A DNA stretch of 64,000 nt from Dehalococcoidia bacterium (GCA_963663895.2 CAXXRD010000001.1:800001-864000), one strand, 5' to 3'; positions 19,645-37,024 are shown, numbered from the stretch's first letter. Translations and numbers: made by a program. Notes: generated from the letters alone by a model not told the origin.

Positions 19645-21018
19645 GGCGCGGAGCGAACGCGGCGCAAGCGCCGCGTGAGATTCAAGGGATCGGCTTTACC
19701 CCATTGGGCGTAGGCCCAGGCGTAGACCAGCAGCAGCGGCGCCAAGGCAAGGACGATGCGCACGTCCACGACTTCGGCCAGCGCCCCTCCCACGAGGAGC
19801 GGAGCGATGGAGGCGAGGCTGGACATCAAGCTCTGGACGGAGAAGATGCGCCCCTGCATGAGCAAGGGCACCCGCTCATTGAGGACGACGTTGGCGGCGA
19901 CATTGACGACCGAGAGGGCAAACCCCAGCGGGAAGGCGATCAGCATCACCATCTGCGACTTGGCGCTGATGTCGGGGAGCGGGCCGAGACCCTGGTCGCT
20001 GAAGCCGAAGAGGGTCCCGATCGTGGCGTCGACGCCGTCGATAAAGGCAAGCAGCAAGAGAGCGGCGATGAAGCCAACGATGCCGGCCGTACCCAGCCAA
20101 GCAGCGTCGCGGCGGCGGGCGAGGGAGGAAACGAGGCGCAGCCCGACGAGCATGCCGATCACGCCGGGCAAGAGCACGATCGGAAGGTCGCTCACCCCTT
20201 GGCCCAGCACCTCCTGTAAGTAGACGGGCATCAGCGCGGCGAGCAAGGGGATGGTGGCGGCGAGGAGGGTGAGCTGGACGGCGGCGCGAAAGACGATGCG
20301 GTCCTGCTTGAGGAAATCGAGCGCTTCGAGAAAGGCCTGTTTGCCCCAGCGTGAGGCTTCGTCCGGGAAGCGAGGGGCGAGCCTCCCGGAACCGCCGGGG
20401 ATCACGGCGGCGTAGATGGCGGCCGCGGAGAAGAAGATGGCGGTGACCACAAAGAGCGCACCAATGCCAGCGAGCTCGGCGAGCAGCGGGGCGAGGATCG
20501 CGAGTCCCGCGATCTGCGCAAGGTAGCGCATGAGGTTGAGGAAGGCGTTGGCGCTGGTGAGCTCGGCCTTCCCGACGAGCGTGGGAACGAGCGCGGACTC
20601 AGCCGGGCCGACGAAGGGGGCGAGCATCGCAAGCAGGGCCGCCAAGAAGTAGATCTCGACCACGCCTTGCGTGCTGAGAACGAACACAAAGCAGACGCCG
20701 GCGCGCAGGGCGTTAGCGGCGAGGAGCGTCCAGCGCTTGGGAACGGCGTCGATCACGGAGCCCGCGACCACGCCGAGGACGGCGGAGGGGAGGACCCACA
20801 GGAGCACGAGGAGGCTGATCTCGATGCCCGAGCTGGTTAGCTGGGCGATGGCGATGAGCGATCCGAACTGAGCGGTGTTGGAAGCGATCTGGCCGAGGGG
20901 TGCGGGCGAGCCAGAGGACACGGAAATCGCGGTTCAGGTAGACGGGCGAGTGCGCCGACTCCGGAGCTTCGGCGCCCGGGTCGCCCTCGGAGCCCGCGCC
21001 GGTCGCGAGCCGCATCAT
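19641..21018 (-). CDS. MFS transporter (apparent frameshift near 20900)
   Basis: NRDFRVLWLA, GSVIDAVPKRWTL, many TM helices, MQGRIFS. Confidence 0.85.
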
Positions 21019-21815
21019 GGGGGATCGGGCAGGGGAAGGGCTGCGTTGATCGCGTCGCGCAGGCGCATCGCCGCCGCCCGCGCGGCAGCCGCAAAATCGG
21101 GGCCCTGCGAAGCGTAGAGGATGGATCGAGAGGCCGTAATGAGGAGGCCCGCGCCCCCGGCGTCGACGCCCGCCGCGAGGGAAGCTTCAAGGTCGCCGCC
21201 CTGAGCGCCGATGCCGGGGATGAGGATGGGAAGGGTGGGGCAGCGCGCGCGCACGGCTCGCAGCGCCGCTGGGTCGGCGGCGCCGACGACGAGGCCGCTG
21301 TTGCCGTGTTCGGCGCCCCATTCCATCGCGAGCTGCGCAACACGCAGGTAGAGCGGCTCGCCGCCCACGTCGAGATCCTGCAGATCGGCGGCGCCAGGAT
21401 TGGAGGTGCGACAGAGTACGAAGGCGGCGCGGTCCGGGCGGGCGAGAAAGGGGCGTACCGCGTCGCCGCCCATATAGGGGCTGACCGTGACGGCATCCGC
21501 GCCAAGCTCGTCGAAGGCGGCCGCAGCGTAAGCGGCGGCGCTATTGGGGATATCACCGCGCTTGCCGTCAAGGATGACGGGAATGGCATCCGGCACCGCT
21601 GCGATGGTCTGGCGCAGGATGCGCCAGCCTTCGGAGCCGTATGCCTCATAAAAGGCCGCGTTGGGTTTGTAGGCGCATACGAGGTCGTTCGTCGCGTCGA
21701 TGATGGCGCGATTGAAGAGGAGCGCGTCTTCAAGGTCAGGGCGGGGGTCGAGGCCGACGCAAAGCAGCGAGCGGTTGGTGATGCGGGCGGCGGCCAAGGT
21801 TTCGCGGAAGCTCAT
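21015..21815 (-). CDS. pyrF: Orotidine-5'-phosphate decarboxylase
   Basis: LCVGLDP, YKPNAAFYE, DGKRGDI, LIPGIGAQGG, SRSILYA. Confidence 0.96.
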   Translation of the reverse strand: MSFRETLAAARITNRSLLCVGLDPRPDLEDALLFNRAIIDATNDLVCAYKPNAAFYEAYGSEGWRILRQTIAAVPDAIPVILDGKRGDIPNSAAAYAAAAFDELGADAVTVSPYMGGDAVRPFLARPDRAAFVLCRTSNPGAADLQDLDVGGEPLYLRVAQLAMEWGAEHGNSGLVVGAADPAALRAVRARCPTLPILIPGIGAQGGDLEASLAAGVDAGGAGLLITASRSILYASQGPDFAAAARAAAMRLRDAINAALPLPDPP

Positions 21816-21908
21816 GTGGTGATCTTACCGGGCAGGTTTCCCACAGCCGTACCGGCATCGCGAGGCGGGGCGTTTCGCGGACGGCACGGCGCGAGTATGG
21901 TCGGCGAA

Positions 21909-22640
21909 ATGGCGGCCCGAGCATCTGTCGCCGTGCACTTGACGCCACCCGCACCGTATCTGGTCGCGGGGCGGACGGCGGTGCTGATCGACACACTGCG
22001 GGCGACCACGACCATGACGACGTTGGTACGGGGCGGAGTGGCGGCGATCTACGCCTGCCCAAGTATCGAGGCGGCGCGTGCGCTGGCGGGGCGCTTGCAG
22101 GGCAGCCGGCTGTGCGGCGAGGTGGAGGGAGAGCGCCCGGAAGGGTTCGATTTCGGCAACTCGCCGACGGAGTTCGCAGCGCTGGACGTCGCGGGGTGGA
22201 ACGTGGTGCAGGCCACCACCAACGGTACCCCCGCGCTGCGGTTAGCAGCCAATGCGAGGCAGACGCTGGCCTGCTGTCTGCGCAATCGCGGCGCGGTGGC
22301 GGCCCGACTTGCCGGCGAGCCCGCGATCGCGATCGTGTGCGGGGGGGAGGAAGGCGGAACGACAGCCTCCGTCGAGGATACCTACACGGCGGGAGCGCTG
22401 GTGGACAGACTGTGTACCCACGACCCGGCACTCCAGTTCAACGCGGGAGCGCGGCTCGCGCGCCGGGTGTTTCAAGCATACGGAGACAGCATGGCGGCGT
22501 TTCAGGAGTCTCCGCACGCGGCCGATCTGCGAGCGCGGGGGTTCGCAGCGGACTTGGCGTACGCTGCGGAGCTCGATGTGGAGCGGGCCGTGCCGCGGGC
22601 GCTGGTCAACGCGGAGGGGCAGGTTATCGTCAGCGGCTAA
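21909..22640 (+). CDS. 2-phosphosulfolactate phosphatase (ComB) family protein
   Basis: VLIDTLRATTT, GFDFGNSP, TTNGT, VEDTYTAG. Confidence 0.9.
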   Translation: MAARASVAVHLTPPAPYLVAGRTAVLIDTLRATTTMTTLVRGGVAAIYACPSIEAARALAGRLQGSRLCGEVEGERPEGFDFGNSPTEFAALDVAGWNVVQATTNGTPALRLAANARQTLACCLRNRGAVAARLAGEPAIAIVCGGEEGGTTASVEDTYTAGALVDRLCTHDPALQFNAGARLARRVFQAYGDSMAAFQESPHAADLRARGFAADLAYAAELDVERAVPRALVNAEGQVIVSG

Positions 22641-22665
22641 GCTGCATGGCGAATAGGGGGATGCG

Positions 22666-23910
22666 ATGCGCGCGGAGATCGTGTCGGTCGGAACCGAGAT
22701 CCTGCTTGGCGAGATCCAGGACACGAACGCACGGTACCTGGCCCAGCGGCTCCCGGCGCTCGGCATCGATCTCTATTTCATGCACCAAGCAGGCGATAAC
22801 CTGGCGCGCCTGCGCGACACCATCGCCGCGGCGCTGGCGCGGGCCGATCTGGTGCTGGTGACGGGAGGACTGGGCCCCACCGAGGACGACATCACCCGCG
22901 CCGCGATCGCGGCGGTCTTCGGTGAGGAGCCGGCCGTCGACGCGGAGTTGGAGCGCACGCTGCGCGAATTCTTCGCGAGCCGCAACTTAAGGATGCCGGA
23001 GCGGAACGTGAAGCAGGCGATGCTGATCCCGTCGGCCACGGCGATCCCCAACCCACGGGGGACGGCGCCCGGCTGGTGGGTTGAGCGAGACGCCAAGATC
23101 GTGGTGGCCATGCCCGGCCCGCCGGCGGAGCTGTCCGGGATGTGGGAGCGGGATGTGCGCCCGCGGCTGGCCGAGCGCAGCGAGGGAATGGTGATCGTCA
23201 GTCGCACGCTGAAGACGGTGGGGATCGGGGAGGGAGTCGTGGACGAGACGGTCGCGCCGCTGCTGGAGAGCCACAACCCGACGATCGGCGTGTACGCCAA
23301 AGGGGACGGCGTGCATCTGCGGCTGACGGCCAAGGCAACGTCGCCGGCGGCGGCGCGGGCGTTGATCGCGCCCGTGGAAGCGCAGGTGCGGGCGCTGTTC
23401 GGAACGGCGGTATGGGGCGCGGACGACGACACCCTGGCACAAGCCGCGGGCGTGCTGCTCAAGGAGAAGGGGCTCACGCTCGCGGTGATGGAGTCTTGCA
23501 CGGGCGGGTTGCTGGCCAGCGCGATCACGGACGTAGCGGGGTCGAGCGCATACTTCCGGGGTGGGCTGGTGCCGTATACGGCCGAGGCGAAGCAGCAGTA
23601 CGGGGTGCCGGCGCAGGTGATCGCGGCCCATGGATTAGTGAGCGAGGCGACGGCGCGCGCGATGGCGGCGGCGGCGCGCGCAGAGCTGGGCGCGGACGTG
23701 GGGGTCGGGGTCACGGGCGTGGCGGGCCCGGAACCCCACGATGGCGCGCCGGTGGGGACGATCGAGGTCGCGATCGAGACGCCGGATGCGTCGGGGCACG
23801 GGGGATTTGTCTTCGCACAGAGCCGCGAGGCGATCAAACGCCGGGCGGTGACGACGGCGCTGCTGCTGATCCGCAGAGCGGCGCTGGGCGAGCTGCGCGC
23901 AAAGAGCTAA
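22666..23910 (+). CDS. cinA: Competence/damage-inducible protein CinA (MocF + NMN deamidase)
   Basis: VGTEILLGEIQDTN, TGGLGPTEDDIT, ESCTGGL, GSSAYF, TGVAGP. Confidence 0.94.
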   Translation: MRAEIVSVGTEILLGEIQDTNARYLAQRLPALGIDLYFMHQAGDNLARLRDTIAAALARADLVLVTGGLGPTEDDITRAAIAAVFGEEPAVDAELERTLREFFASRNLRMPERNVKQAMLIPSATAIPNPRGTAPGWWVERDAKIVVAMPGPPAELSGMWERDVRPRLAERSEGMVIVSRTLKTVGIGEGVVDETVAPLLESHNPTIGVYAKGDGVHLRLTAKATSPAAARALIAPVEAQVRALFGTAVWGADDDTLAQAAGVLLKEKGLTLAVMESCTGGLLASAITDVAGSSAYFRGGLVPYTAEAKQQYGVPAQVIAAHGLVSEATARAMAAAARAELGADVGVGVTGVAGPEPHDGAPVGTIEVAIETPDASGHGGFVFAQSREAIKRRAVTTALLLIRRAALGELRAKS

Positions 23911-24050
23911 CCACGTCCAGCGCGATCGGTCAGAGCCGGCGGTACGCATGGTACCGTTGGCCGCGGCGGGGTGGCATGGCCGACGCCAATGCTCCCCGTG
24001 AGCCGATCCGTCGCGCGGCGCGGACAGCAGGCGCTCCTAGTAGAGACGGC

Positions 24051-25073
24051 ATGCAAACCACCGCTCTCCCAATCGCGTTGGGCGCGAACTGGATATACGC
24101 GCTGCCCTCCAAGGAGGGGCTGTTGCTCGTCGACGCGGGGCCGGACTACCCCGGCTCGTGGGACGAGCTGGTGACGCAGCTCGACGGCTACGGCTACCGG
24201 CCCGAGCAAGTGCGGCGGGTCGTGGTCACGCATGCGCACGTGGATCACGCGGGGCTGGCGGCGCGGTGGCAGGAGTTGGGGGCGGAGGTGTGCGGGTCGG
24301 CGGATGAGGTGGAGCGCTTCGCGGCGGGGCTGGCGGTCGGCTGGTACGACTCCGATCTGGTGCTGCGCTTGCTGGCCGAGTGCGGGGTCCCGGAGGAGCG
24401 ACTGACGGGGCTGCGCCAGCACTATCCGCCTCATCCGGAGCAACTGGCCGCCTGGCGGCGGTCGCCCCCGGAAAAGCTGCCGAGCAAGCGCTGGCCGGGA
24501 ATGTTGTGGGCGACGCCGTTTCGTCCCGACCGCACGCTGCAGGCGGGGGATGTGGTGTCGGTGGGGGAGCGCGCGGTGCGCTTCGTGGCGACGCCGGGCC
24601 ATACCCCCGGCGACTCGGTCTACTACGAGGAAGCCAGCGGCGCCTTGTTCAGCGGCGACCACTTGCTGCCGCGGACGACATCAACGCCCGGGATTCACTT
24701 CTTCAACCACCGCTACGAGGAACGGATGCGGAGCCTGCCCGAACAGGGGCGCTCGCTACAGCGGGTGCGAGCACTGGGTGCGACGCATCTGTATCCGGGG
24801 CACGGCGAGGCAACGCCGGATGTCGCCGGCGCGGCCGAGCGGACGGCGGCGCGGCGTGCCAAGCGGCAAGGCAGGATCTTGCGCGAGGTCGAGCGGGGAC
24901 CGCTGACGCCCTACGAGGCGCTTCAGCGCTTTTTCCCGCATCTGCCGGACGGCCGGATCCGGCAGGCGCTGGCGGAGATCATCGGGCTGATCGACGCCCT
25001 GATCGTGGCAGGGCTGGTCGAGGAGCATCGCGAGGACGGAGTGATCCGAATCGCGGCGGCGTCTAGCGGGTGA
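24051..25073 (+). CDS. Metallo-beta-lactamase fold hydrolase with C-terminal winged-helix-like tail
   Basis: THAHVDH, PGHTPG, SGDH, YPGHG metal ligands. Confidence 0.88.
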   Translation: MQTTALPIALGANWIYALPSKEGLLLVDAGPDYPGSWDELVTQLDGYGYRPEQVRRVVVTHAHVDHAGLAARWQELGAEVCGSADEVERFAAGLAVGWYDSDLVLRLLAECGVPEERLTGLRQHYPPHPEQLAAWRRSPPEKLPSKRWPGMLWATPFRPDRTLQAGDVVSVGERAVRFVATPGHTPGDSVYYEEASGALFSGDHLLPRTTSTPGIHFFNHRYEERMRSLPEQGRSLQRVRALGATHLYPGHGEATPDVAGAAERTAARRAKRQGRILREVERGPLTPYEALQRFFPHLPDGRIRQALAEIIGLIDALIVAGLVEEHREDGVIRIAAASSG

Positions 25074-28000
25074 GACGGCGGTAGAGGGCGGGGAGATGGC
25101 GGGGCAAGGAGCCGATGTCGCTGACGATCTCGTAGCCCATGTCCTGGCACATCTCTTGGAGGTAATCGTGGCCTTGCCGGTCGACGGTGAGGCAGAAAGG
25201 CGTAATGCCCTCGCGGCGGGCCTCGGTGAGCGCCATCTTGGTGTCGTGGATGGCGTACTCCTTTTCGGTACGGTCGCGGCCGTAGCCGTGATCTTGGGGC
25301 CGGCCGTCGGAGATCACGACGAGAATGCGGACTTTCGAGCGCGCTTCCTTCAGCTTGACGATAGCGTGACGGATGGCGGGACCCATACGGGTCGAGCGTA
25401 CGGGAGTGATCTTATCGATGCGCTTCTTGATGCCGTCTGAGAAGGGCTCCTCTATGTCCTTGATGACGTAGAACTCGACGTTGTCCCGGCCGTAGCCGCT
25501 AAAGCCGTAGATGCCGTAAGTGTCGCCGATGGATTCGAGAGCTTCGGTGAGGAGGACGATGGCGTCCTTTTCGAGGTCGATGATGCGTTTGGAGGGCTGG
25601 CCGGCCTCCCGGGCGCGCTTCTGCGCCCACCAGGTGAAGTACTTACGCGGGTCGTCGTCGAAGGCGGCGTCGTCCGCACCGAAGCGTTTGCGACGATGGA
25701 TCTCCTCGTCGGTACTGGCGGACATATCGAGGAGGAAACCCACGGTGACGTCACGCTCGACCTTGTTGCGGCGATAAAAGAGGTTGGAGTCCGTGGGAGC
25801 GCCAGCGGCGCGCTGGACGATCCATTCGACCACGGCGTCAAGGTCGAACTCCTCGCCATCGGGAAGATGTCTGATCTTGCGGAAGAGCTCGGGGCGGAGC
25901 AGCTCGAACTGCTTGCGCGTTTCCTTCACAAGGGCGGCGTTCTCGCTGAGCGTGTGGTTGTAGAAGTCGACCTCCCCGCTTGGGAGCGTGCGCTGCTGCA
26001 GGCGGCACCAGCGGGGCTTGTAGTCGTTCGCGCGGAAGTCCCACTCATCATAAAAGAAGAACTGGGGATCGTCGGGGAGTGATGCGTCACCGGAGTCCTG
26101 GCTGGAGGCGTAGTCGCCCTGGAGCTGCTGCCCCGGGGTATCGGATGGGACGCGGGTGCTGGCCATCTCCTCCATCAGGTTGTCCATCATGGCGGAGACC
26201 GCGCCGTCGAGATCGCCGGCGTCGTCCTCCGCGAACTCGATCTCCGCGCTCTTCTCGATGAGCTCCTTGAGCTGCTCGGGGGTGATGGGGATAGGCTCGC
26301 CCTCGTCCGTACCCTCGCCGCGCATCTGGAGCAGCATCTGAACGAGCTCGGGTTTGAAGTCGCCGCGGAAGTCGACGGGCTCGGGGCTCTGATAGGCCTG
26401 CGGGCTGCGGCCGCTCAGGGACGCGGTCGTCGCAGCGGGGGCGCTGAGGGACTCATCACCCTGTGGCACGTCCTGCTCCTCCGTGACCTCCTCTTCGGGC
26501 GGATCAGCGGGGAGCCACTGCGACTCGTCAAGCTGGACGTTGGGAATCGAGGCGATCCACTCGTAGAGGCGGAGAGCGGCCTCGGCGGAATCTTCGACGG
26601 AGGCGTCGCCGTCGCGCATCCGAGCGAGAATCTGAAGCGGGGTCTTGATGAGCTCCGCGATCTCGGGGGGCCACTGGATCGTGTCGCCGGCATCCAGGCT
26701 CAGGCGGACAAGATTCTCGACGGCGGCTTCGCGGGCGGGCATGGTTGCAAGAGCGCGGCGGCGGACGACGGCGGCACGCTGCAAGCGCTCGAAGGCCGTG
26801 CGGACGCCGGGATACTCCCGGCGGAGGACGCTATCAATGCGGGTGTCCTCAACGATCGTGAAGAGATCGGCGATGAGGCGGCGATCGTCGAAGAGGTCGA
26901 AGAAGCGCTCCATGTCCGTGAGGGCAGGATCACCGTCGCGGGCCGGAGCGCGCGTGAAGCGGAGATCGTCGAAGAGGGTGGCCGGGCGGGAGAAGCGGAA
27001 GTGGAAGGAGTCAAATTCCAGCCGCCCCGCTTGGTGTGTCGCGAAGACTTTGTAGACGGAGAAGTTCAGCGCTTTGTCGTTGTGCTCCTCGACGACCGCG
27101 GGCAGGTAGATGGCCGTGCCTTCCGTCGTGGGGCTGCTCTGACTGACCCAGCCGACTCCACGCTCGGCGAGGGCGTCGAGCGGGAAGACGGCCACGTCGG
27201 CGCCGGTGAGCGCGCGACAGTAGAGCCGGATCAGCTCGGCGACGTTCTCGAGCTCAACGCGGGAGGAGAGCGCCTGGATGACCTCTTCGCCTTTGGCGGA
27301 CTCCAGGCGAAAGAAGGCCTCCCCGCCCGCTGCGCTCTTCTGCAGGATGGCCAAGCCCTGCGCATGCCAGCGGGCGAGATCGTCGTGGCTGACGCGCGCA
27401 AGGACGGCGGGCGACGATTTGATGAACTCCATCGCGGCGAGGCCGGAGTGGGGAAGCAATTCCTCGGCGAGAGCGATAACGCGGCCGTGCACGGCGTCAT
27501 CAACTTCCGCCAGCGCCGCGGCCGCATCGAGGAAATAGGGATGGCCTTGCCGTCCCACCATCAGCGCGACGCGGCCGGAGAGCGCAAGGAAGCGCGCGCG
27601 CTGCTGGGGCTCGACGCGCTTGATGGCGTTGGGGCTGCGCTCAAAGTAGTTGCGCGCGTCGGCCCAGGCCGTGTTGGCGACGATCGAACCGAATTCGAGG
27701 ACGGGAGCCCGATCGGCGCGGTCGAGCTCGCCAAGGACGGCGGCGGACATGCCCAGGCAAGCGCTGGCCAGCTCGTAGGAGTGACCGGCGAGGGCGTCGA
27801 TCAGTTCGACGAGGAGGCGCGTCTGGCCGAGGGGCAGCTGCGAGAGGATGGCGGGGCTGACGTCGAAATACTGCGCGGCGAGGGAGCCCGACTTCCAGGT
27901 GCCACGGTAAAGCAGGCGACCCTGCTCGCCCCAGTCGGGCGCCTGCGCGGGAGCAAGGTGCGGAAGCGCGGCGGGGCTGGCGCGGAAGTAGGCCGCAGCA

Positions 28001-28329
28001 AGCGCGGGGGAATCGGCGGCGAGATCACGGCCACTGCCTGCCCAGGCTTGGAAGTGGGGGAGGGGCAGTTGGTCGAGCACGGCGGCGCTGACGCGACAGT
28101 AGACGCTGGCGGCTTCCCAAGCACGGAGGGAATGGCGGGCGACCGCGAGCCCTTCGTCCGCCCAGGCAAGGAGGGCGTCCGCGTCTAGGCGCTCCTGGAG
28201 CTGGGTGCAGGCTTCGTCGAACTCCTGCAAGAGCGGCGGAGGGAAGGTGGCGAGCGCCTCACGGATGGCGGCCAGGGCGGGCTCCGTGGCGCTGGGCCTG
28301 GGAGAGTGTGGGCGGGGACTATCGGGCAT
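25063..28329 (-). CDS. Large NorD/CbbO-like VWA domain protein with N-terminal helical repeats
   Basis: YDEWDFRANDYKPRWC, DGEEFDLDA, MIDAS LLDMSAST, STRMGPAIRHA, ISDGRPQD. Confidence 0.88.
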   Translation of the reverse strand: MPDSPRPHSPRPSATEPALAAIREALATFPPPLLQEFDEACTQLQERLDADALLAWADEGLAVARHSLRAWEAASVYCRVSAAVLDQLPLPHFQAWAGSGRDLAADSPALAAAYFRASPAALPHLAPAQAPDWGEQGRLLYRGTWKSGSLAAQYFDVSPAILSQLPLGQTRLLVELIDALAGHSYELASACLGMSAAVLGELDRADRAPVLEFGSIVANTAWADARNYFERSPNAIKRVEPQQRARFLALSGRVALMVGRQGHPYFLDAAAALAEVDDAVHGRVIALAEELLPHSGLAAMEFIKSSPAVLARVSHDDLARWHAQGLAILQKSAAGGEAFFRLESAKGEEVIQALSSRVELENVAELIRLYCRALTGADVAVFPLDALAERGVGWVSQSSPTTEGTAIYLPAVVEEHNDKALNFSVYKVFATHQAGRLEFDSFHFRFSRPATLFDDLRFTRAPARDGDPALTDMERFFDLFDDRRLIADLFTIVEDTRIDSVLRREYPGVRTAFERLQRAAVVRRRALATMPAREAAVENLVRLSLDAGDTIQWPPEIAELIKTPLQILARMRDGDASVEDSAEAALRLYEWIASIPNVQLDESQWLPADPPEEEVTEEQDVPQGDESLSAPAATTASLSGRSPQAYQSPEPVDFRGDFKPELVQMLLQMRGEGTDEGEPIPITPEQLKELIEKSAEIEFAEDDAGDLDGAVSAMMDNLMEEMASTRVPSDTPGQQLQGDYASSQDSGDASLPDDPQFFFYDEWDFRANDYKPRWCRLQQRTLPSGEVDFYNHTLSENAALVKETRKQFELLRPELFRKIRHLPDGEEFDLDAVVEWIVQRAAGAPTDSNLFYRRNKVERDVTVGFLLDMSASTDEEIHRRKRFGADDAAFDDDPRKYFTWWAQKRAREAGQPSKRIIDLEKDAIVLLTEALESIGDTYGIYGFSGYGRDNVEFYVIKDIEEPFSDGIKKRIDKITPVRSTRMGPAIRHAIVKLKEARSKVRILVVISDGRPQDHGYGRDRTEKEYAIHDTKMALTEARREGITPFCLTVDRQGHDYLQEMCQDMGYEIVSDIGSLPRHLPALYRRLTR

Positions 28330-28957
28330 CGGATGCTCTGGGCGCGGGGGAGACGCCGGAGTGTCGCGCGACCACGCGGGTGGGATCAGGAAAATTGTCG
28401 AAGGTCACGGACTCGTCGATCGTATCCAACACAGCGTAGGAGAGCTGGAAGCCGTTATGGGGATCGCGGGGCTCGCCGGCGGAGCCGGGGTTAATCACCA
28501 AGGCATCGCCGATGCGCCGCTCCAGCTGGTAGTGCGTGTGGCCGTAGATCACGAAGTCCGCCTCTAAATGGGCGAGCTTCTGCAGATCGGCGCTGGAGGG
28601 GTAGAGATAGTCGCGGTAAGGCTCCCAAGGCGTCGCATGGAACATGAAGAGGGTCTTGCCGTCCAGCGTGGTGCGCAGGGTGTTGGGATGGGCGCTGGTC
28701 CAGGCGAGTAGCTCCCGATCGACCTTGGGGGACTCGCGCGCGCGTACGCCCGCGGCGCTCAAGAGGATCTCCTCATGGTTGCCGAGGATGAACCGGGCGC
28801 CGCGTTCGCGCAGGCGGGCGACGACCTCGTTGCTGAAGCGGAACTGGTAGACGGCATCGCCGGCGCAGAGCAGCTCATCGACGGGGCCCATGCGGGCAAG
28901 AGCGGTGTCCAGCGCCTCGATATTGCAGTGGATGTCGGAGAGGATGCCTAGGCGCAC
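28319..28957 (-). CDS. Calcineurin-like metallophosphoesterase (YfcE-like)
   Basis: SDIHCN, AGD, GNHE, FHA, GHTH, NPGSAG. Confidence 0.9.
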   Translation of the reverse strand: MRLGILSDIHCNIEALDTALARMGPVDELLCAGDAVYQFRFSNEVVARLRERGARFILGNHEEILLSAAGVRARESPKVDRELLAWTSAHPNTLRTTLDGKTLFMFHATPWEPYRDYLYPSSADLQKLAHLEADFVIYGHTHYQLERRIGDALVINPGSAGEPRDPHNGFQLSYAVLDTIDESVTFDNFPDPTRVVARHSGVSPAPRASDAR

Positions 28958-29002
28958 TGGGGTCCTCGAAGCGGATGCAGGAAGAGCGAGGAACGAGCGG
29001 CG

Positions 29003-29914
29003 CTATTCAAAGATGGACGCGATCACTTCTTCGACGCTGCGCTGGATCTCGGCGTCGTCGGTCAGAGACCACACGATCGCAATCTGACAAGCGCGGCGGG
29101 GGGCGATGCCCTGGCGGATGAGGCTGCCTGCGTAGATCAGCAGGCGGGTGCTGGCACCCTCGCTGAGGCCGTGCTCGCGAAGATGGCGGATTTTTTCGGC
29201 CATCTTGGCGAGGCGGAGCGCGGTCTCGGCATCAATGCCGGATTCGTGCTGGATGATCTCGGCCTCGATCTCACGAGGCGGGTAGTCAAACTCGATGGCG
29301 ACGAAGCGCTGGCGCGTGCTCTGCTTGAGGTCTTTCAGGGCGCTCTGATAGCCCGGGTTGAACGAGATGACGAGGAGGAAGCCGTCGCGGGCTTGGAGGA
29401 GCTGCGACTTCTTCTCGACGGGAAGGATCCGGCGGTGATCGGTGAGGGGGTGAATGAGGACTGTGGTGTCCTTGCGTGCCTCGACGACCTCGTCGAGGTA
29501 ACAGATCGCGCCCGCTTTGACGGCGCGAGTGAGGGGGCCGTCGATCCAGACCGTCTCCTGCCCTTCGAGCAGGTAGCGGCCGACGAGGTCGCTGGCGGTG
29601 AGGTCTTCGTGGCAGGCAACGGTGACGAGCGGCAGGCTGCTCTCCTGCACGATCTCTTTTCTGCCGTCACGGGAGACGACGACGGGGCGGTTGAGGTGAA
29701 AGGCCATGTACTCCACGAAGCGGGTTTTGCCGCAGCCGGTGGGCCCTTTGAGGAGCACGGGGATCTTGGAGTTCCAGGCCGCGCGGAAGAGCTCGACCTC
29801 GTCCCCGACGGGAACGTAGTACGGCTCTTCTTGGAAGCGGAACTCCTCAACCGCCCAGGAGCGGTATTCGGTAAGGGGAGCTTCGGTTTGGGAAGTCATG
29901 ATCTCTCGCTGCAT
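29003..29914 (-). CDS. CbbQ/NirQ/NorQ family MoxR AAA+ ATPase
   Basis: [66 protein letters not shown]. Confidence 0.94.
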
Positions 29915-29930
29915 CCAGTCGCGTGGCGCT

Positions 29931-30542
29931 CTAGCCAGTTGGCAGGAGGCGCCCTCGCAGCGCCTCCCATTCTTGGTCCACTCGCGCCCAAGCCTCCTCT
30001 ACTGAGCCGCTGTTGTCGATCACGCGGTCAGCATGCTTGATCCGCTCCCCGTCGGTGAGCTGGGAGTCGATGCGCGCGTTGGCGGCTTCGGTGCTGAGGC
30101 CGTTGCGCTGCATGAGGCGCTGCCGGGCGATGGAGCGGGGCACCGTGACGACCCAGACTTCGTCGGCGAGGTCCTGCCAGTCCGCTTCGATGAGGACCGC
30201 CGCTTCGAGCACGGCGACCTGGGATCCGGCGCGCTCAAGGCCGCGCAACTCTTCCACGGCGAGCGCCTTGATGGCGGGCCAGACGATATCGGTCAGGCGC
30301 TTGAGCGCGGCGGCGTCGCCGAAGACTTTGGCGCCGAGGACACGGCGGTCGATAGCGCCATCGTCGGCGACGATCTCGCGGCCGAAGCGGTCGACGACGG
30401 CATCGTAGACGGGACCGCCGGGCGCGTAGGTTCGATGTCCGAGCAGATCGGCGTCGAGCAGCGCGGCGCCACGCTCGACGAGCCTGGCGGAGACGGCGGA
30501 TTTACCAGAGGCGATGCCGCCGGTCAGTCCGATCACGTGCAT
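29931..30542 (-). CDS. coaE: Dephospho-CoA kinase
   Basis: [37 protein letters not shown]. Confidence 0.93.
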
Positions 30543-30620
30543 GCGCCCCGCCTTCAAAGAACCGAGCCGACCGGCACGCCTGGTGGCGAAACAAACAAGG
30601 CCCATCCGGGCCGAGAAATG

Positions 30621-30650
30621 AGGCTATCAATGGCCAATTCCGAGCGTCAA
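30621..30650 (-). promoter_or_regulatory. Putative sigma70 promoter of the coaE-cbbQ-MPP-VWA operon
   Basis: Minus strand TTGACG-18 nt-TAGCCT. Confidence 0.45.
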
Positions 30651-30834
30651 GGTAAACCCCCCAGGGACTCCCCGGCGCTGCGGCCGTCCAGGCGGTAGCG
30701 GGACGGCTCGATCGCTTGCGCTCGGCGCGGGCTCCAGACTCCGAGAGAGTGTATCGCCGCTGTCAGTGATGGGAGGAGAGCGAACATGATAATAGAGGCG
30801 CGCGTCCGCACGATCGTCCCAGGGAGAGCAGGCG

Positions 30835-31308
30835 ATGGCCGTCGAAGCGTTGAGCAGTACCGCGGACTTGGAAGACGCCCGCGAGCAGTTGCTGCAGAGC
30901 TTCGCCGGCTTGGATGAGTCGCTCCTGAACGAACCCAACGTCGTGGGCGAATGGAGCATCCGCGAGGTGGTCGCACACATCGCCACCTGGGATGCGTGGG
31001 TGCGCGAGGTGCTCGACGCTGCCCCGCAGGGCGCCCCGGCCAGCGTGCCCGACGAGGAAGCGACGAACCAGCGAGCGCAGGAGCGCTTTGCCGGGACGCC
31101 GTTCGGAGAGATCCGGCGCGAGATGCGATCAACGCGAATGCCGATCCTCTGCCAGTTCGCGGCGATGAGTGATGCGGAGCGGGCGCGCCCCCGCTACCTG
31201 ATGGACGACAAGCTGATCTCCGCGGACGATCTGGCCGAGAGCTTCATCGAGCACGATCTGACGCACGCATCGGAGATCCGGGCTTGGCGCAAGCTGCGGG
31301 GCGTCTAA
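30835..31308 (+). CDS. DinB/DfsB-like four-helix bundle protein
   Basis: GEWSIREVVAHIATWD and IEHDLTH metal-binding His pattern. Confidence 0.8.
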   Translation: MAVEALSSTADLEDAREQLLQSFAGLDESLLNEPNVVGEWSIREVVAHIATWDAWVREVLDAAPQGAPASVPDEEATNQRAQERFAGTPFGEIRREMRSTRMPILCQFAAMSDAERARPRYLMDDKLISADDLAESFIEHDLTHASEIRAWRKLRGV

Positions 31309-31324
31309 CCCGACCCCTAGACCG

Positions 31325-32302
31325 CTAGTCTTGGAGGAGCTCGCGCAAGGCCGCGGCAAGCGGCGGTAGCACCTTCTGGTAGTCCTCGACCACGCCAAAA
31401 CGGCAGAAGTTGTAGATGTTCGCGCCGGGGTCCTTGTTAATCGCGACGATGTTCTTGCTGCCCCCGCAGCCGGCCATGTGCTGACTGGCGCCGCTGATCG
31501 CGACGGCGAGGTAGAGCGTGGGCGAGACGACCGTGCCCGTGAGCCCCACCTGTTGCGCGGGCGGGTACCAGCCGAGGTCGCAAGCGGCGCGGCTGGCGCC
31601 CACCGCAGCGCCCAGCACGGAGGCGAGCTCCTCCAAGTCACGGAAGGCGCTCTCTTGGCCGAGGCCGCGACCACCGGCAACGACGATCTCCGCCGTGTTG
31701 AGCGGAATCCCTTCCGACTGGGCCCGCTCCTTGCCGGTGACGGCGGCGCGGGGGGCGACGGGATCGACCGCGATGGCGGTGATCGATCCGCGCCGTGAGG
31801 CGTCGGGATCCAGCGCGTCCTGCGATTTCGCGCGCACGGTGATGACCTGCGGATCGCTGGTGATGGTCACGACCTGACGAGCGTTGCCGCCGAAGCAGGG
31901 ACGCGTGGCGCGGATCCGTCCCTCCGCGACGGCGAGGTCCACGGCGTCCATGACGACGGCCGTGTCGAGACGGGCGGCGAGGCGGGGGGCCAGATCTCGG
32001 CCGATACTGGTTTGGCCGATCAGGACGACTTGCGGCCTCTCTTGCTGGACGATCGCGGCGGCCAGGGGAACGTAGGCTTCGGTGTGGTACTGCACGAGCG
32101 ATTCGTGGTCGGCGGTGTAGACGGTTTCGGCGCCGGCCGCGACCGCGGCTTGGGCAGCGCTAGCGAGCGCGCCGCCGATCAGGGCGCAGGCGACGCCACC
32201 GCCAAGCTCTTCGGTCAAGCGCGTGGCGGCGCCTAAGAGTTCGGCGCTGGTCGCGCTGAACTGCCCGTCCGGCGCTTCGCCGATGACGAGGACGCTCGCC
32301 AT
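31325..32302 (-). CDS. etfA: Electron transfer flavoprotein alpha subunit
   Basis: VVAGGRG, GASRAA, QVGLTG, AISGASQH, AINKD. Confidence 0.95.
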   Translation of the reverse strand: MASVLVIGEAPDGQFSATSAELLGAATRLTEELGGGVACALIGGALASAAQAAVAAGAETVYTADHESLVQYHTEAYVPLAAAIVQQERPQVVLIGQTSIGRDLAPRLAARLDTAVVMDAVDLAVAEGRIRATRPCFGGNARQVVTITSDPQVITVRAKSQDALDPDASRRGSITAIAVDPVAPRAAVTGKERAQSEGIPLNTAEIVVAGGRGLGQESAFRDLEELASVLGAAVGASRAACDLGWYPPAQQVGLTGTVVSPTLYLAVAISGASQHMAGCGGSKNIVAINKDPGANIYNFCRFGVVEDYQKVLPPLAAALRELLQD

Positions 32303-33105
32303 TAGACGATCTTGGCCTCGCGCAGCTTCCGCGCGAGGGCCTGTGCCTTCTCTGCAGGCGAGTCGCCATCGATAAATTCCACTTGGGTCTCGTTCTTGGG
32401 AACGAAGAGTTGCTCCATCTTGACGCGAGCGCCGGCGGCGCCGACCGCGTGCGGATCGAGCCCGAGATCGGCCGGGGTCCAGACCGTCACATCTTTCTTG
32501 GCCGCTTGCATGATCTGCCGCAGCTGCGGATAGCGGGGATCGCCGAACTCATTGCTGATCGTGAGGACGCAAGGAGTGGCGGTGATAACGGACTCGAAAC
32601 CGTCACTGACGACCCGCGAGGCGCCGATCTTCCCGTCGCGCCACTCGACGGAGCGCAGCACGGTGACGGACGGCAGGTCCAAGAGCTCCGCGACCATGCC
32701 GCCGACGACGCCGTAGTCCCAATCGGCAGCTTGACGGCCGAAGAGGAGAACGTCCGGGAGGCCGATCTTTTCGATCGCCTTGGAGAGCGCGAGCGCAGTG
32801 GTCCAAGAGTCACCGTCTTCGAAGGCGGGATCGTTCAAGTGGTACCCCTCGTCGGCGCCCATGGCGAGTCCGTGCTTGACCGCATCGCGGGCGGAGTCGG
32901 GGCCTAAGGAGAGCACGCCGATCGTGCCGGCGCCGGCGGCATCACGCAGCTGGAGGGCAGCCTCGACGGCTTGGGCGTCGAATGGGCTAATGACCTGCTG
33001 TACCCCCGGCGGCGGGACGATGGTCATGCTGGCTTCGTCCACCTTGAAGGCGGAAGCGGGCATCTCCGGGTCGAGGATCTGCTTCACGCAGACGATCGCG
33101 TCCAT
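32302..33105 (-). CDS. etfB: Electron transfer flavoprotein beta subunit
   Basis: IVCVKQILD, AVEAALQL, LAMGAD, GRQAAD, PRYP. Confidence 0.95.
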   Translation of the reverse strand: MDAIVCVKQILDPEMPASAFKVDEASMTIVPPPGVQQVISPFDAQAVEAALQLRDAAGAGTIGVLSLGPDSARDAVKHGLAMGADEGYHLNDPAFEDGDSWTTALALSKAIEKIGLPDVLLFGRQAADWDYGVVGGMVAELLDLPSVTVLRSVEWRDGKIGASRVVSDGFESVITATPCVLTISNEFGDPRYPQLRQIMQAAKKDVTVWTPADLGLDPHAVGAAGARVKMEQLFVPKNETQVEFIDGDSPAEKAQALARKLREAKIV

Positions 33106-33189
33106 TGGGTCTCTCTTGTTTTCCCAGAAAACCGGGAAGGCCGGACAGCATTGTCGCGCTCGGTCCGCGCTGAGGCAACGCGGCGCCGG

Positions 33190-35424
33190 TTAGCCCGGCT
33201 CGGACGGAGGCGGCGGCGGGGAAGGAGAGTCGCTGGATAGGGGTGCTGCGGCCAGGAGCTCGGCAACGTCAAAGGCCTGCATCTGGCGCGCCGCGTCCGT
33301 CTCCATCTGCACGGTCGGGAGGCCGGAGTCGAACATTTGGATGCAGAAGGGGCAGGCGGTGCAGGCCTTGTCGGCGCCGGTATCGACGGCCTCGCGGGCA
33401 CGCACCTCGTTGACGCGCTCGCGGCCCTGCTCCTCCATCCACATATTGCCGCCGCCGGCTCCGCAGCAGAGGCCTTGCTCGCGATTGCGGGGCATCTCGA
33501 CCAAGGTGACGTTGGGGATGCGCGTCAAGATACGACGGGGCGCCTCGTAGATATTGTTGTGGCGACCGAGGTAGCAAGAGTCGTGGAACGTGACCGTCTG
33601 CTGGGCCGTGGCTTTGGGCGTGAGCTTGCCCGCGTCGAGCAAGCGCTCCAGCAGGACGGAATGGTGAATGACTTCGTAGGTACCGCCTAACTCGGGGTAC
33701 TCGTTCTTGAACGTGTTGAAGCAGTGCGGGCAGTGGGTCACGATCTTTTTGACACCAGCCTCGTCGAGCGTAGCGATGAGCTGCTGGGCGAGGATCTGGA
33801 AGAGATACTCGTTGCCGAGGCGGCGGGCAGGGTCGCCGTTGCAGGGTTCGTTGAGACCGAGCACGCCAAAGGAGACGCCCGCGTCCTTCAGCAAGGTCAC
33901 CACCGAGCGCGTGATCGACTGCGCCCGATCGACCAGGGCCCCGGTGCAGCCCACGAAGTAGAGATACTCCTGCTCTCCAGTCCAGGGCGGGACTTCGAGC
34001 CCCTCCATCCAGGACTCACGGGTATGGGCCGTGCCGCGCCAGGGATGGCCCTGCCGCTCTAGGGTTTCGAGGGCGCCTTGCACGGACTCGGGCATGCGCG
34101 CCTCTTCCATCACGAGACTGCGGCGCATGTCGACGATGGTGGGAATGTGCTCGATAAAGACCGGGCATTCCTGGACACAGGCTCCGCAGGTACGGCAGGC
34201 CCAGAGCGCCTCCTCGGTGACCGCGCCGCCGATCATGGAGGGCGCCCCGTCGAGGCCTGCGTCAAGGGCGGCGCCACGGGCCTGGTTGGTGGCCATGCGG
34301 GCACCGACGGTGGAGGCATGGTCCTTGAGATTGAGGATGATGTGCATCGGAGAGAGCGGTTGGCCGGCGATGTCGGCGGGGCAGGCGCTGGTACAGCGGC
34401 CACAGTGGACGCAGGCATCGAGTTCGAACAGCTGCTTCATGGAGAAGTGATTGAGCTGGCTGGCGCCGAAGTGCTCGGCTTCCTCAATGTTGGGGATGAG
34501 CGGCAACTTGCCGGAGGAAGCCGGGTTCCTGAGGAACGCATTGAGCGGCGCGGCAACGACATGGTTGAGCTTGGTGTAGCCCAGCAGGCCGAGCCAGCTG
34601 AGCGCGGTGACCATGTGAAACCACCAGAGGGCTTGGTGCAGGTCGAGCTGGGTGGTCGTGCTGAAGCCGCCGAAGATCTTCGCCACGACCCAGCCGCCCG
34701 GGGACCAGATGGCCCAGCCGGGGTTCTCGTGGATCTCCGAAGAGGCGATGCGCAGCCCTTCAACCAAGAAGCCGGTGATGAGAAGCGCGCCGAGCCCGCC
34801 GAGAATCGCCCAGTCCTCCCAGCGCAGCTCCCAGCGAGTGCGCGGCCGCACCCAGCGATGCGCAACCGCCAAGCCGACGCCGATCAGCCCCACGATCCCG
34901 AAGATGTCGCCGACGAGCGAGTAGCCGAGATAGCGGTCGCCGACGAGGATGCGGACTTCATCGTCGGGGAGGTAGTCATCAATGGCGAGGAGAGCGGTGA
35001 CCAGGAAGAGGACCACGATGCTGGACATCAGGCAGGCGTGCATGAGTCCGGAGTAGGGATCGTTGAGCACGCGCTCCGTGGCGAAGCCGCCGCGCACGAC
35101 ATTGCGCAGCCGGGCGCGGGGATTATCGAAGCGGAAGTCGGGCCGGCCGAGCCGCCAGATGCGGGAGCGCCGGATGAGCGGGTAGACGATGACGGCGACG
35201 AGAAGCGGCAAGAGTGCGTAGAGCACCCAGAAGTGATCGATATTGAAGAAGATCTCGCGGTGCGGCCCGTCGAAGCGGGCGGTCTCGGCAGCGCTGAGCA
35301 GCAGCAGACCTCCGAGCGGGATCCACAGGGGGATGGCGAGGCCGAGCAGTGGACGCGCGCGCTTGGCAGCGGGACGCCGTCGGGCGCGCGACGGACGGGA
35401 CCGGCCGGAGGTGGAGGAGGTGAT
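33190..35424 (-). CDS. Membrane Fe-S oxidoreductase (FadF/EMO/HdrD-like: TM heme-b-type module + 2x[4Fe-4S] + CCG domains)
   Basis: TM helices with His residues, CVHCGRCTSACP, CRTCGACVQECP, HCPHC, HDSCYLGR, CCGAGGG, ACPFC. Start codon uncertain (ORF is open to 35553). Confidence 0.88.
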   Translation of the reverse strand: MTSSTSGRSRPSRARRRPAAKRARPLLGLAIPLWIPLGGLLLLSAAETARFDGPHREIFFNIDHFWVLYALLPLLVAVIVYPLIRRSRIWRLGRPDFRFDNPRARLRNVVRGGFATERVLNDPYSGLMHACLMSSIVVLFLVTALLAIDDYLPDDEVRILVGDRYLGYSLVGDIFGIVGLIGVGLAVAHRWVRPRTRWELRWEDWAILGGLGALLITGFLVEGLRIASSEIHENPGWAIWSPGGWVVAKIFGGFSTTTQLDLHQALWWFHMVTALSWLGLLGYTKLNHVVAAPLNAFLRNPASSGKLPLIPNIEEAEHFGASQLNHFSMKQLFELDACVHCGRCTSACPADIAGQPLSPMHIILNLKDHASTVGARMATNQARGAALDAGLDGAPSMIGGAVTEEALWACRTCGACVQECPVFIEHIPTIVDMRRSLVMEEARMPESVQGALETLERQGHPWRGTAHTRESWMEGLEVPPWTGEQEYLYFVGCTGALVDRAQSITRSVVTLLKDAGVSFGVLGLNEPCNGDPARRLGNEYLFQILAQQLIATLDEAGVKKIVTHCPHCFNTFKNEYPELGGTYEVIHHSVLLERLLDAGKLTPKATAQQTVTFHDSCYLGRHNNIYEAPRRILTRIPNVTLVEMPRNREQGLCCGAGGGNMWMEEQGRERVNEVRAREAVDTGADKACTACPFCIQMFDSGLPTVQMETDAARQMQAFDVAELLAAAPLSSDSPSPPPPPSEPG

Positions 35425-35461
35425 GCGGCGCCCCCGATCGAGTGCGCCCCCAGGGGCGCGG

Positions 35462-37024
35462 CTAGTGGGAATCGGCGCCCCCGTGGGCTTGGCGGATCTC
35501 GTTCTTGAGAAGCTTACCCATGTGATTGCGGGGGAGATCGGATACGAGCGCAAGGTAGGCGGGGGCTTTGTAGCTCGCGAGCCGACTCTTGGTGTACGCC
35601 ACCACCTCGTCGAGCTTGGGCGTGCTACCAGCGGCCGGAACGACGACCGCCTTCACGACTTCGCCCCACTCGTTGTCAGGGACGCCGATCACGGCGACGG
35701 CGGCGATGGCAGGGTGATCTTCAAGGACCTGTTCGATCTCGCCGGGGGCGATGTTCTCGCCGCCGCGGATGATGAGGTCCTTGGTGCGGCCCGTGATGAA
35801 GAGGTAGCCGTCTTCGTCGAGATAGCCGACATCGCCCGTGTGGAGCCAGCCGTCGTGAATGGCTTCGTTCGTGGCATCCTCTTGCTTGTAGTAGCCCTTC
35901 ATGATGCGGGCAGACTGGACGCAGATCTCCCCCTCTTCGCCGGAGGCGAGGATCTGGCCTTGCGGGTCCTGGATGGTGATGTCGACATCGTCCATGGAAC
36001 GGCCGACCGAGCGCAGCCGCCGTATCTTCTTCGCGTTTTCTTCGTCGGAGCCGTCGAGACGGTGGTCGTCAGGACCGAGGAACGTGACGGTGGAAGTGGA
36101 CTCCGTCTGGCCGTAGGCGTTCATGAGGTCGGCGCTGAAGACATCGATCGCTTTGCGCACGACTTCGAAGGGCATGGGCGCGGCGCCGTAGGTGATGAGG
36201 CGCAGGCTGTCGCCCTTGAAGCTCGCGAACTCCGGCGCCTCCATGATGCGCTTCAGCATCGTGGGGACGACCATGCTGTGGGTCACGCCGTGCTTGTCGA
36301 CGGCTTCGATCCAGCCGGCGGGGCTGAACTGGGGGAGCAGGACGAGGGCGCGGCCTCCCCAGATCGACGAGATCATGGCGGTGGCGCCGGCGATGTGGAA
36401 GAGCGGCACACTGAGCAATGTGCGGTCTTGGCCGGCGCTGGGGTCGGCGGGAGCCATGGTATTGGTGACGTAGACGGTGAAGTCTCCGTAGGAGACGACG
36501 ACCCCCTTGGGTATCGCCGTGGTCCCGGACGTGTACATGAGAATGGTCGGCGCGTCGTCGTCGACTTCGGTGTAGACGAATTCGTCGCTGCCGCTCGCGA
36601 CAAGCTCGGGGTAGTGGATCATGCCGTCGCGCTTGGTTTCGAACGTGACGGCGTGCTGCAGGGCGGTCAGCCCGGGCCGGAGTTGATCGAGCAGATCCAG
36701 GTAGCGGTCCGAGACGAAGAGCGCCTTCACTTCGGAGGTGTTGAGCATGTAGGTCAGCTCTTCGGTCTTGGCGCGGTAGTTGAGCGGGACGAAGATCAGG
36801 CCGAGCTTGGCGCAGGCGTAGTAGACGATCACGTACTCCGAGGAATTGACGGACATGCTGCCGACGTGGTCGCCCGCGCGCAGGCCCAGCGCTTGCAGTG
36901 CGTTGGCAAGCTTGGTGACGTGCGCCGCCATCTCCGCGTAGGTGTACTGGCGCTCGCCACAGATCAGAGCAGGGCGGTCCGGCACCACGCCCGACGAGAT
37001 GTCCAGGAATTCCGCCGTGTTCAT
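35462..37024 (-). CDS. Acyl-CoA synthetase (long-chain fatty acid-CoA ligase family)
   Basis: YTSGTTAIPKG, YGQTE, WLHTGDVG, IIRGGENI, GKLLK. Confidence 0.93.
   Translation of the reverse strand: MNTAEFLDISSGVVPDRPALICGERQYTYAEMAAHVTKLANALQALGLRAGDHVGSMSVNSSEYVIVYYACAKLGLIFVPLNYRAKTEELTYMLNTSEVKALFVSDRYLDLLDQLRPGLTALQHAVTFETKRDGMIHYPELVASGSDEFVYTEVDDDAPTILMYTSGTTAIPKGVVVSYGDFTVYVTNTMAPADPSAGQDRTLLSVPLFHIAGATAMISSIWGGRALVLLPQFSPAGWIEAVDKHGVTHSMVVPTMLKRIMEAPEFASFKGDSLRLITYGAAPMPFEVVRKAIDVFSADLMNAYGQTESTSTVTFLGPDDHRLDGSDEENAKKIRRLRSVGRSMDDVDITIQDPQGQILASGEEGEICVQSARIMKGYYKQEDATNEAIHDGWLHTGDVGYLDEDGYLFITGRTKDLIIRGGENIAPGEIEQVLEDHPAIAAVAVIGVPDNEWGEVVKAVVVPAAGSTPKLDEVVAYTKSRLASYKAPAYLALVSDLPRNHMGKLLKNEIRQAHGGADSH

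Follow-up and report, generated by a model that had tools for sequence, protein, structure and literature searches.

Pairs consisting of a MoxR-type AAA+ ATPase and a VWA-domain protein are widespread, and to our knowledge their only known clients are RuBisCO, nitric oxide (NO) reductase, CO dehydrogenase, the chelatases and the RavA-ViaA targets. The described systems closest to the locus analyzed here are CbbQ/CbbO, the RuBisCO activase (structures 5c3c and 6l1q), and NorQ/NorD, which, as described in the cryo-EM report (structures 9qh4-9qhg; PMC13036017), inserts iron into the cytochrome c-dependent NO reductase. The locus lies in a stretch of 64,000 nucleotides (CAXXRD010000001.1:800001-864000, hereafter the window; G+C ~67%) from the Dehalococcoidia bacterium genome GCA_963663895.2, which comprises 2.37 Mb in 5 contigs and is 91.4% complete; gene absences in this genome are judged within that limit. 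Four co-oriented minus-strand open reading frames (ORFs), confirmed in the ORF listing, encode a dephospho-coenzyme A (CoA) kinase, an ATPase, a metallophosphoesterase (MPP) and a VWA protein:

29931-30605, minus strand: coaE (dephospho-CoA kinase), 224 aa, first gene of the unit; Pfam CoaE 5.9e-48
29003-29914, minus strand: CbbQ/NorQ-type (MoxR CGN) AAA+ ATPase, 303 aa; Pfam AAA_5 and CbbQ_C
28319-28957, minus strand: YfcE-like MPP, slot gene, 212 aa; Pfam Metallophos_2 9e-26
25063-28329, minus strand: NorD/CbbO-like VWA protein, 1088 aa; Pfam VWA 4.5e-06, residues 921-1065

The first-pass annotation, made from the DNA alone, had described four tightly packed genes of one orientation, the last two overlapping, and the ORFs and domain matches bear this out: coaE and the ATPase gene are separated by 16 bp, the ATPase and MPP genes by 45 bp, and the MPP stop lies over the VWA start with an overlap of 11 bp.

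From sequence comparison we consider it probable that the ATPase and the VWA protein form a remodeller of the NorQD/CbbQO type whose client is new and is encoded elsewhere. The two are members of a large uncharacterized 'long-VWA' family that is near-core in Dehalococcoidia-class Chloroflexota, and its client is neither RuBisCO nor NO reductase, nor is it generally a heme-copper oxidase, an electron transfer flavoprotein (ETF) or the product of a flanking gene.

The ATPase-VWA pair compared with described systems

The ATPase consists of an AAA_5 domain (PF07728, 5.2e-30) followed by CbbQ_C (PF08406, 2.5e-30), which places it in the CGN (CbbQ/GvpN/NorQ) group, and, as expected of this group, it has an adjacent VWA partner with a complete MIDAS (adhesion site dependent on metal ions). 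It is the only CbbQ_C gene in the source genome. The whole-length matches in the PDB are CbbQ (5c3c, 2.7e-103) as the best and NorQ (9qh4, 8.4e-95). The sequence carries the Walker A motif GPTGCGKT, the Walker B residues DE and a helix-2-insert motif fitting GRxLL/IxxxxT; a cysteine lies inside the P-loop. The cysteine-bearing Walker A, the GRxLLxxxxT helix-2 insert and the Walker B are shared with NorQ, and in the NorQD cryo-EM structure the helix-2-insert motif contacts the NorD finger (PMC13036017).

The first-pass annotation had called for a phylogeny of the ATPase against the CbbQ and NorQ clades, and its expectation that the protein would stand apart from both is upheld. With references from annotated plasmid loci (five of norCBQD type, two from rbcL/carboxysome loci, two aliphatic-amidase-linked, two orphan, plus GvpN), the careful tree groups the five NorQ references in a clade with support 100/99, and both CbbQ references together with the amidase-linked and Ancylobacter ATPases in a clade with support 99/99; the window ATPase belongs to neither and is found with 24 other Chloroflexota ATPases on one side of a weak branch (78/27). 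A quick tree of 61 ATPase rows places 48 Chloroflexota rows in a clade with support 99*.

The RuBisCO large subunit (PF00016) has 0 matches in the genome, and the single COX1 gene, located on another contig than the operon, is adjacent to a COX2-cytochrome c fusion and is therefore of caa3 type rather than NorB. Since there is no RuBisCO and the only heme-copper oxidase is caa3-type, the pair is neither CbbQO nor NorQD, and the earlier proposal of a client other than RuBisCO or NO reductase stands (nirS was not among the searches).

The VWA protein can be divided into four regions:

27280-28212, minus strand: residues ~40-350, seven tandem HEAT-like helical repeats of ~37 aa with the core YFxxSPxxLxxL
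26410-27258, minus strand: residues 358-640, conserved middle domain, similar to the N-terminal domains of NorD and CobT
26059-26409, minus strand: residues 641-757, acidic linker, mostly unconserved in the family alignment A1
25063-26058, minus strand: residues 758-1088, finger region, VWA domain with MIDAS, conserved C-terminus

The C-terminal region (330 residues) aligns to residues 355-643 of NorD (3.1e-39 with the single sequence, 8.5e-70 with the profile), the alignment covering the finger, the MIDAS and the C-terminal tail, and it is about 30% identical to NorD and CbbO alike (for the latter, the Nitrobacter and Cereibacter proteins). The MIDAS residues D868, S870, S872 and T980 are invariant, and D1008 is present in at least 90% of the A1 rows; unlike NorD, the window protein has an insertion of ~35 residues after the MIDAS DxSxS. 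The acidic linker corresponds in position to the NorD linker, which is unresolved in the structure according to PMC13036017.

The middle domain is the most conserved novel block of the protein, with N422, R497, Y506 and G508 invariant and a near-invariant H432-Q433 block in A1. Its profile yields weak, colinear matches to residues 36-119 and 157-198 of the NorD N-terminal domain, as well as a weak match to residues 96-279 of CobT (E 1.8e-4). At the BLAST level residues 1-700 have no similarity to CbbO or NorD, and, conversely, the N-terminal 450 residues of CbbO have none in the window VWA protein. Pfam gave no matches for residues 1-876 at E<=10 and NCBIfam none for the whole protein. Unlike NorD (~640 aa), the protein has an extra N-terminal extension of some 350 residues with seven HEAT-like repeats. 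The repeat consensus is visible in A1, and the A1 profile finds weak matches to symplekin, AP-3 beta and designed helical repeats (positions 80-306). The repeat region is missing from the short forms (~705 aa) of the family.

In contrast to NorQ/NorD, the pair is accompanied by no NorB/NorC and resides in a coaE operon instead of a nor cluster; in contrast to CbbQ/CbbO, genes for RuBisCO or carboxysomes do not accompany it. The pairs from Labrenzia, Paraburkholderia, Ancylobacter and Miltoncostaea, likewise without NOR or RuBisCO, have this two-gene core too, with a client that is non-canonical or unassigned; unlike the window pair, they are not linked to coaE, NUDIX or MPP. The plasmid-borne ATPase of Miltoncostaea oceani (Actinomycetota) is the closest annotated relative of the window ATPase (62% identity; L092, 7989-11699), and its VWA partner is a member of the same long family split into genes for a 362-aa N-terminal part and a 548-aa VWA part; the opposite strand of L092 carries thiolase, DUF35-like OB-fold and AMP-binding genes. 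In the Labrenzia and Paraburkholderia plasmids (L099 and L101) the ATPase-VWA pair lies directly downstream of an aliphatic amidase gene, with ANTAR and urea-type transporter genes; unlike the window ATPase, the amidase-linked ATPases group with the CbbQ references. The combination of an AAA+ motor with a VWA/MIDAS protein also recalls the chelatases CobS/CobT and BchI/BchD, and the weak CobT match of the middle domain points in the same direction, but there is no CobN/BchH-type subunit nearby and the ATPase has CbbQ_C and is not of the CobS/ChlI type.

Distribution of the long-form family

A word-indexed search with the VWA protein gave 2218 matches among 8000 candidates scored, the best 120 of which are all full length and 51-99% identical, while an exhaustive search returned representative clusters numbering 4211 at E<=1e-3, 3088 at E<=1e-10 and 1421 at E<=1e-30. 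These clusters include many proteins of ~1000-1100 aa (30-48% identity) and shorter forms of ~650-790 aa that start near residue 355. The named members come from metagenome-assembled genomes (MAGs) of Chloroflexota, Dehalococcoidia or SAR202, plus one MAG labelled Deltaproteobacteria. Tepidiformaceae and Tepidiformales MAGs are among the carriers, and the Tepidiforma group has cultured members.

In an even sample of the phylum the VWA protein is present in 9 of 301 genomes, all from the class of the window, and the genomes with strong (at least 100-bit) CbbQ_C matches are exactly the same nine. Within the class, the VWA family is found in 263 of the 401 genomes sampled (one of them, G519, unpublished) and in 208 of the 300 high-quality ones; the carrier rate is 100% in many families and 0% in some. 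The system is therefore near-core in much of the class and not an oddity of this genome.

The short form of the VWA protein was observed in L084 and L085 (genomes G078 and G141) and in L167 and L168 (G309 and G308). It is the only system in G078 and G141, both of which are without COX1, and a second, paralogous system beside a coaE-linked or long one in G308 and G309. All four short-form systems are without CoaE and NUDIX. The neighbours in L084 and L085 are genes for a NadN/UshA-like 5'-nucleotidase, a 265-aa ORF of no known family, and MgtE-like and Nramp genes; the 265-aa ORF, upstream of the short-form ATPase in L084, was considered as the missing N-terminal domain and rejected. One VWA orthologue (G412:C1:2740996-2744235) contains an in-frame TGA and one ATPase orthologue (L183, G320) an in-frame TAA, which may be sequencing errors or mark pseudogenes.

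Linkage to coenzyme A genes

CoaE scores 157.4 bits with the equivalog model TIGR00152 (cut-off 65.55) and can be assigned to it, and a genome-wide search identified its gene as the only copy. The CoaE proteins of relatives align from about residue 21 of the window CoaE, and the true start of coaE may lie downstream of 30605. MPP scores 51.8 bits with TIGR00040 (yfcE), below the cut-off of 56.25, and possesses all the metal-ligand motifs (DxH, GD, GNHE, H and GHTH). The structure 3qfm is that of an Ap4A hydrolase.

The first-pass annotation had made its reading depend on the linkage of the pair to both coaE and the phosphoesterase being conserved in relatives. For coaE this holds. In a near-relative set of 80 species-representative loci (VWA protein at least 48% identical), coaE sits at most 300 bp ahead of the ATPase gene in 51 of the 52 loci with enough flank. 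Of 65 loci, 48 have the ATPase gene no more than 1.4 kb upstream of the VWA gene and 4 have it further upstream; in the other 13 it is not seen within 10 kb. Where the VWA gene has moved away, the ATPase gene, at its separate site, has kept coaE in front of it in all five genomes tested. The ATPase also served as a probe in 25 further families of the class, one genome per family; 24 were positive, and in 21 of these 24 families CoaE is directly upstream of the ATPase. The phosphoesterase is less constant: an MPP orthologue occupies the slot between the ATPase and VWA genes in 33 of the 80 near loci (MPP is present in only about half); 9 loci have a cyclophilin there, 4 a 23S-rRNA-IVP protein and 1 an SDR, and the slot is otherwise empty. 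Across the 24 families it holds a NUDIX protein in 10, MPP in 4 and nothing in 6, with the VWA gene not adjacent or the flank uninformative in 4; in L176 an MPP gene is directly upstream of the ATPase gene. The inserts that separate the VWA gene from the ATPase or MPP gene in L027, L046, L052 and L077 (cyclophilins, BNR, BsuPI/dockerin and an SDH-type protease) were also considered and revealed no common client.

The gene order in the class is coaE, ATPase, a CoA-pyrophosphatase-like NUDIX or (here) MPP, then VWA, and because of this interleaving the ATPase and the VWA protein are predicted to be expressed together with housekeeping CoA genes. For the slot NUDIX proteins the best, and mostly the only, NCBIfam match is NF007980 ('CoA pyrophosphatase') in 12 of 12 cases (the 10 families plus L086 and L087), with E-values of 4e-22 to 6e-35 and scores of 79-121 bits, all below the curated cut-off of 134. 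For one of them the best PDB match is the CoA pyrophosphatase from D. radiodurans (1nqy, 3.7e-23), followed by NUDT7 and Nudix hydrolase 11, and the top five PDB matches are CoA diphosphatases. A stretch resembling LLxxRSx(8)GxxxFPGG is seen in the slot NUDIX proteins; the CoA-type (NuCoA) motif lies upstream of the Nudix box.

In the genome of the window a NudL-like NUDIX stands alone outside the operon on contig 5 (L189, 139000-155000), flanked by the genes for MgsA and the polyphosphate kinase PPK2; a MutS2/Smr gene and the gene for a 1095-aa restriction-modification enzyme of Type ISP are nearby. The coaE-less operon L086 likewise adjoins MgsA. We considered the idea that MPP displaced the NUDIX functionally and did not adopt it, as a NudL-like NUDIX is kept elsewhere and the tree of slot states is too weak to order the events. 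In two metagenome contigs (L296 and L298) the order is ATPase, VWA, CoaE, with CoaE directly downstream of the VWA gene.

One way of refining the reading of the pair as a remodeller with a new client, without contradicting it, is to view the operon as a functional CoA module, in which the machine would act on a CoA-binding or CoA-dependent client, and a CoA-type nucleotide set free or needed in the process would be dealt with by CoaE and the co-encoded hydrolase (a CoA-pyrophosphatase-like NUDIX, here MPP). We regard this refinement as possible, though tentative and on balance rather unlikely. The frequency of the coaE-ATPase linkage is far above that of the flanking synteny (ETF-alpha precedes CoaE in 18 of 44 near loci and CinA lies downstream in 16 of 49) and above that of the ATPase-VWA adjacency, and the coaE-ATPase pair persists both where the VWA gene has been relocated and across the families of the class. 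The CoA-pyrophosphatase-like character of the slot NUDIX argues in the same direction, as does the recurrence of three kinds of phosphoesterases beside the machine (NUDIX, MPP including that of L176, and the NadN/UshA-like 5'-nucleotidase of the short-form loci L084/L085), and in the window genome the NUDIX left the operon while coaE stayed with the ATPase.

On the other hand, in genomes without the machine (28 genomes from 26 families) coaE is directly followed by a NUDIX of the same kind in 8, so coaE and nudL make up a CoA pair that stands alone, with which the ATPase/VWA genes have been interleaved or from which they have been lost. If the ATPase gene simply depended on the promoter of the essential coaE, no shared function would be needed to account for the adjacency. 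The slot also accepts unrelated genes (cyclophilin, 23S-rRNA-IVP, SDR) or none, the NUDIX scores remain below the curated cut-off, and the Miltoncostaea plasmid copy has no adjoining CoA genes. Furthermore, among 80 metagenome loci of a divergent long-form clade the ATPase-VWA pair is present in 46, and in these 46 there are 0 cases of CoaE upstream or of any NUDIX or MPP (many flanks being short), and the arrangement of L296 and L298, with CoaE directly downstream, occurs in two loci outside these 46; genes that recur beside the pair in this clade encode PriA, FtsJ, a tRNA methyltransferase, a Zn-ribbon-TPR protein and a CoxE-type VWA protein. The first-pass suggestion that kinase plus phosphoesterase could point to salvage or repair of CoA derivatives has therefore met with a divided outcome: the NUDIX in the slot of 10 other families speaks for it and the machine-less coaE-NUDIX pairs against it. 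A full-text search, with most subscription journals outside its reach, found no literature linking dephospho-CoA kinase or CoA pyrophosphatase to MoxR/VWA systems.

A more specific form of the module, which we consider speculative and improbable, is a 'CoA-enzyme activase', the CoA counterpart of RuBisCO activase plus inhibitor phosphatase. Here the machine would pry a dead-end CoA species (oxidized CoA, CoA persulfide or dephospho-CoA) from the client enzyme, the CoA-pyrophosphatase-like NUDIX (here MPP) would destroy the released inhibitor, and CoaE would complete CoA resynthesis from salvaged 4'-phosphopantetheine; the HEAT-like extension, a feature of the coaE-linked long form alone, would serve as client-docking arm. 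CoA persulfide inhibits acyl-CoA dehydrogenases, and CbbY is a phosphatase of xylulose-1,5-bisphosphate (XuBP).

Flanking genes, other candidate clients and the proposed mechanism

Since NorQD supplies iron to NorB, which is a relative of heme-copper oxidases (PMC13036017), the caa3-type heme-copper oxidase could by analogy be the client, which we consider very unlikely. The first 7 long-form carriers examined all have COX1 and the two short-form carriers lack it; it is over the cut-off in 41 of 52 further carriers (at least 90% complete). However, the 11 carriers without COX1 over the cut-off include G459 (100% complete) and G434 (one contig), so that a heme-copper oxidase is not the general client; moreover, the COX genes of the window genome are on another contig and the ATPase is outside the NorQ clade.

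The operon has the following surroundings on its coaE side:

30606-30834, no strand: coaE/DinB_2 divergent intergenic region, presumed promoter region, with ORFs on opposite strands on either side
30835-31308, plus strand: DinB_2 gene, upstream bound of the unit, divergent from coaE
31325-35553, minus strand: EtfA, EtfB and a membrane Fe-S protein of 787 aa (Nitrate_red_gam-like, 4Fe-4S, two CCG domains)

The product of the DinB_2 gene is similar to the mycothiol-maleylpyruvate-isomerase N-terminal domain of the thiol-dependent transferase superfamily, and the gene is kept only in the nearest relatives (L002-L015). We read the genes at 31325-35553 as a module of EtfD-type ETF:quinone oxidoreductase, separate from the coaE operon here: since the plus-strand DinB_2 gene lies between them, EtfBA and the EtfD-like Fe-S genes belong to another transcription unit. 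In several families the EtfAB/Fe-S module adjoins coaE. The downstream bound of the unit is a convergent ORF of the metallo-beta-lactamase (MBL) fold that ends at 25073. This ORF (23142-25073, plus strand, 643 aa) overlaps the CinA gene (22666-23910), its domain begins only at about residue 312, and the true start of the gene is probably near 23950; its best NCBIfam match is the Strvi_7410-family MBL hydrolase, far under the cut-off.

The single candidate promoter of the first-pass annotation could not be substantiated: a consensus scan found 0 promoter-like sites in 24500-31500, and only a weak TTGACG-18 nt-TAGCCT arrangement can be seen by eye at 30650-30621. There are no Rfam families in 20000-36000, and a terminator scan gave nothing useful. 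Pieces from three metatranscriptome runs are identical over 151 nt inside the VWA gene and over 179 nt inside the ATPase gene, which demonstrates neither a transcript nor co-transcription.

That the client is one of the flanking acyl-CoA enzymes (EtfAB, the EtfD-like Fe-S/CCG oxidoreductase, the MBL hydrolase or the crotonases), as the first-pass annotation had favoured, appears highly improbable. ETF-alpha is directly upstream of coaE not only in the near loci counted above but also in L169, L181 and L183 from three other families. Against this, as far as the ETF and MBL genes are concerned, the ETF genes are separated from the operon here; ETF is found in 369 of the 401 class genomes whatever their carrier status, which makes it an uninformative marker, and was not found in the carriers G300 and G377 (both 95% complete); and the MBL gene is downstream in only 1 of 49 near loci.

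It is barely credible that the machine loads the di-metal site of MPP itself. The overlap of the MPP and VWA genes and the intact metal ligands would fit such a role, but with MPP in only about half of the near loci it cannot be the general client, and it is absent from the operon in 20 of the 24 family representatives as well, the ATPase-VWA pair being kept. A genuine RuBisCO activase of the CbbQO kind, or a genuine NorQD, for which the high-scoring PDB matches of the ATPase and the name 'NorD' given to relatives in some databases could be cited, is refuted within the 91% completeness of the genome by the lack of RuBisCO and NorB and can be dismissed, the ATPase being outside both reference clades and residues 1-700 of the VWA protein being dissimilar to CbbO and NorD.

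We return to the NorQD/CbbQO-type remodeller, with a new client encoded elsewhere. All the motifs that a NorQD-like mechanism would require are present in the two sequences, and the mechanism proposed here is transferred by homology from NorQD as described in PMC13036017. By this analogy, a hexameric AAA+ ring would take the VWA finger into its pore and hold the VWA C-terminus, and ATP-driven steps would twist the VWA/MIDAS head against the N-terminal domain. The latter would be lengthened by the HEAT-like solenoid, putatively an added client-docking arm, and the two ends together could grip the client and force it apart, which may let a metal or cofactor in or a tight ligand out.

Several points weigh against this reading. 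None of the tested candidates (RuBisCO, NorB, COX1, ETF and MPP) emerged as the client, CoaE itself being universal, and the gene absences rest on genomes that are 90-100% complete. The references of the ATPase tree comprise only 11 proteobacterial and actinobacterial plasmid genes, only two of them CbbQ; in the careful tree the Chloroflexota side has weak support, and the rooting with GvpN is unreliable (branch length 10). Finally, the mechanism is taken from NorQD, whose N-terminal half matches the window protein weakly.

The Dehalococcoidia-class Chloroflexota include abundant marine and soil lineages, and the analysis defines in them a near-core family with a new architecture for which the textbook clients are excluded. 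The family is deeply and conservedly interleaved with the last gene of CoA biosynthesis and with a CoA-pyrophosphatase-like NUDIX, predicted to degrade CoA. Were the link to CoA functional, CoA homeostasis or CoA-enzyme repair would for the first time be connected with an ATP-driven remodeller; otherwise the locus would still provide a clean test bed for a new MoxR client.

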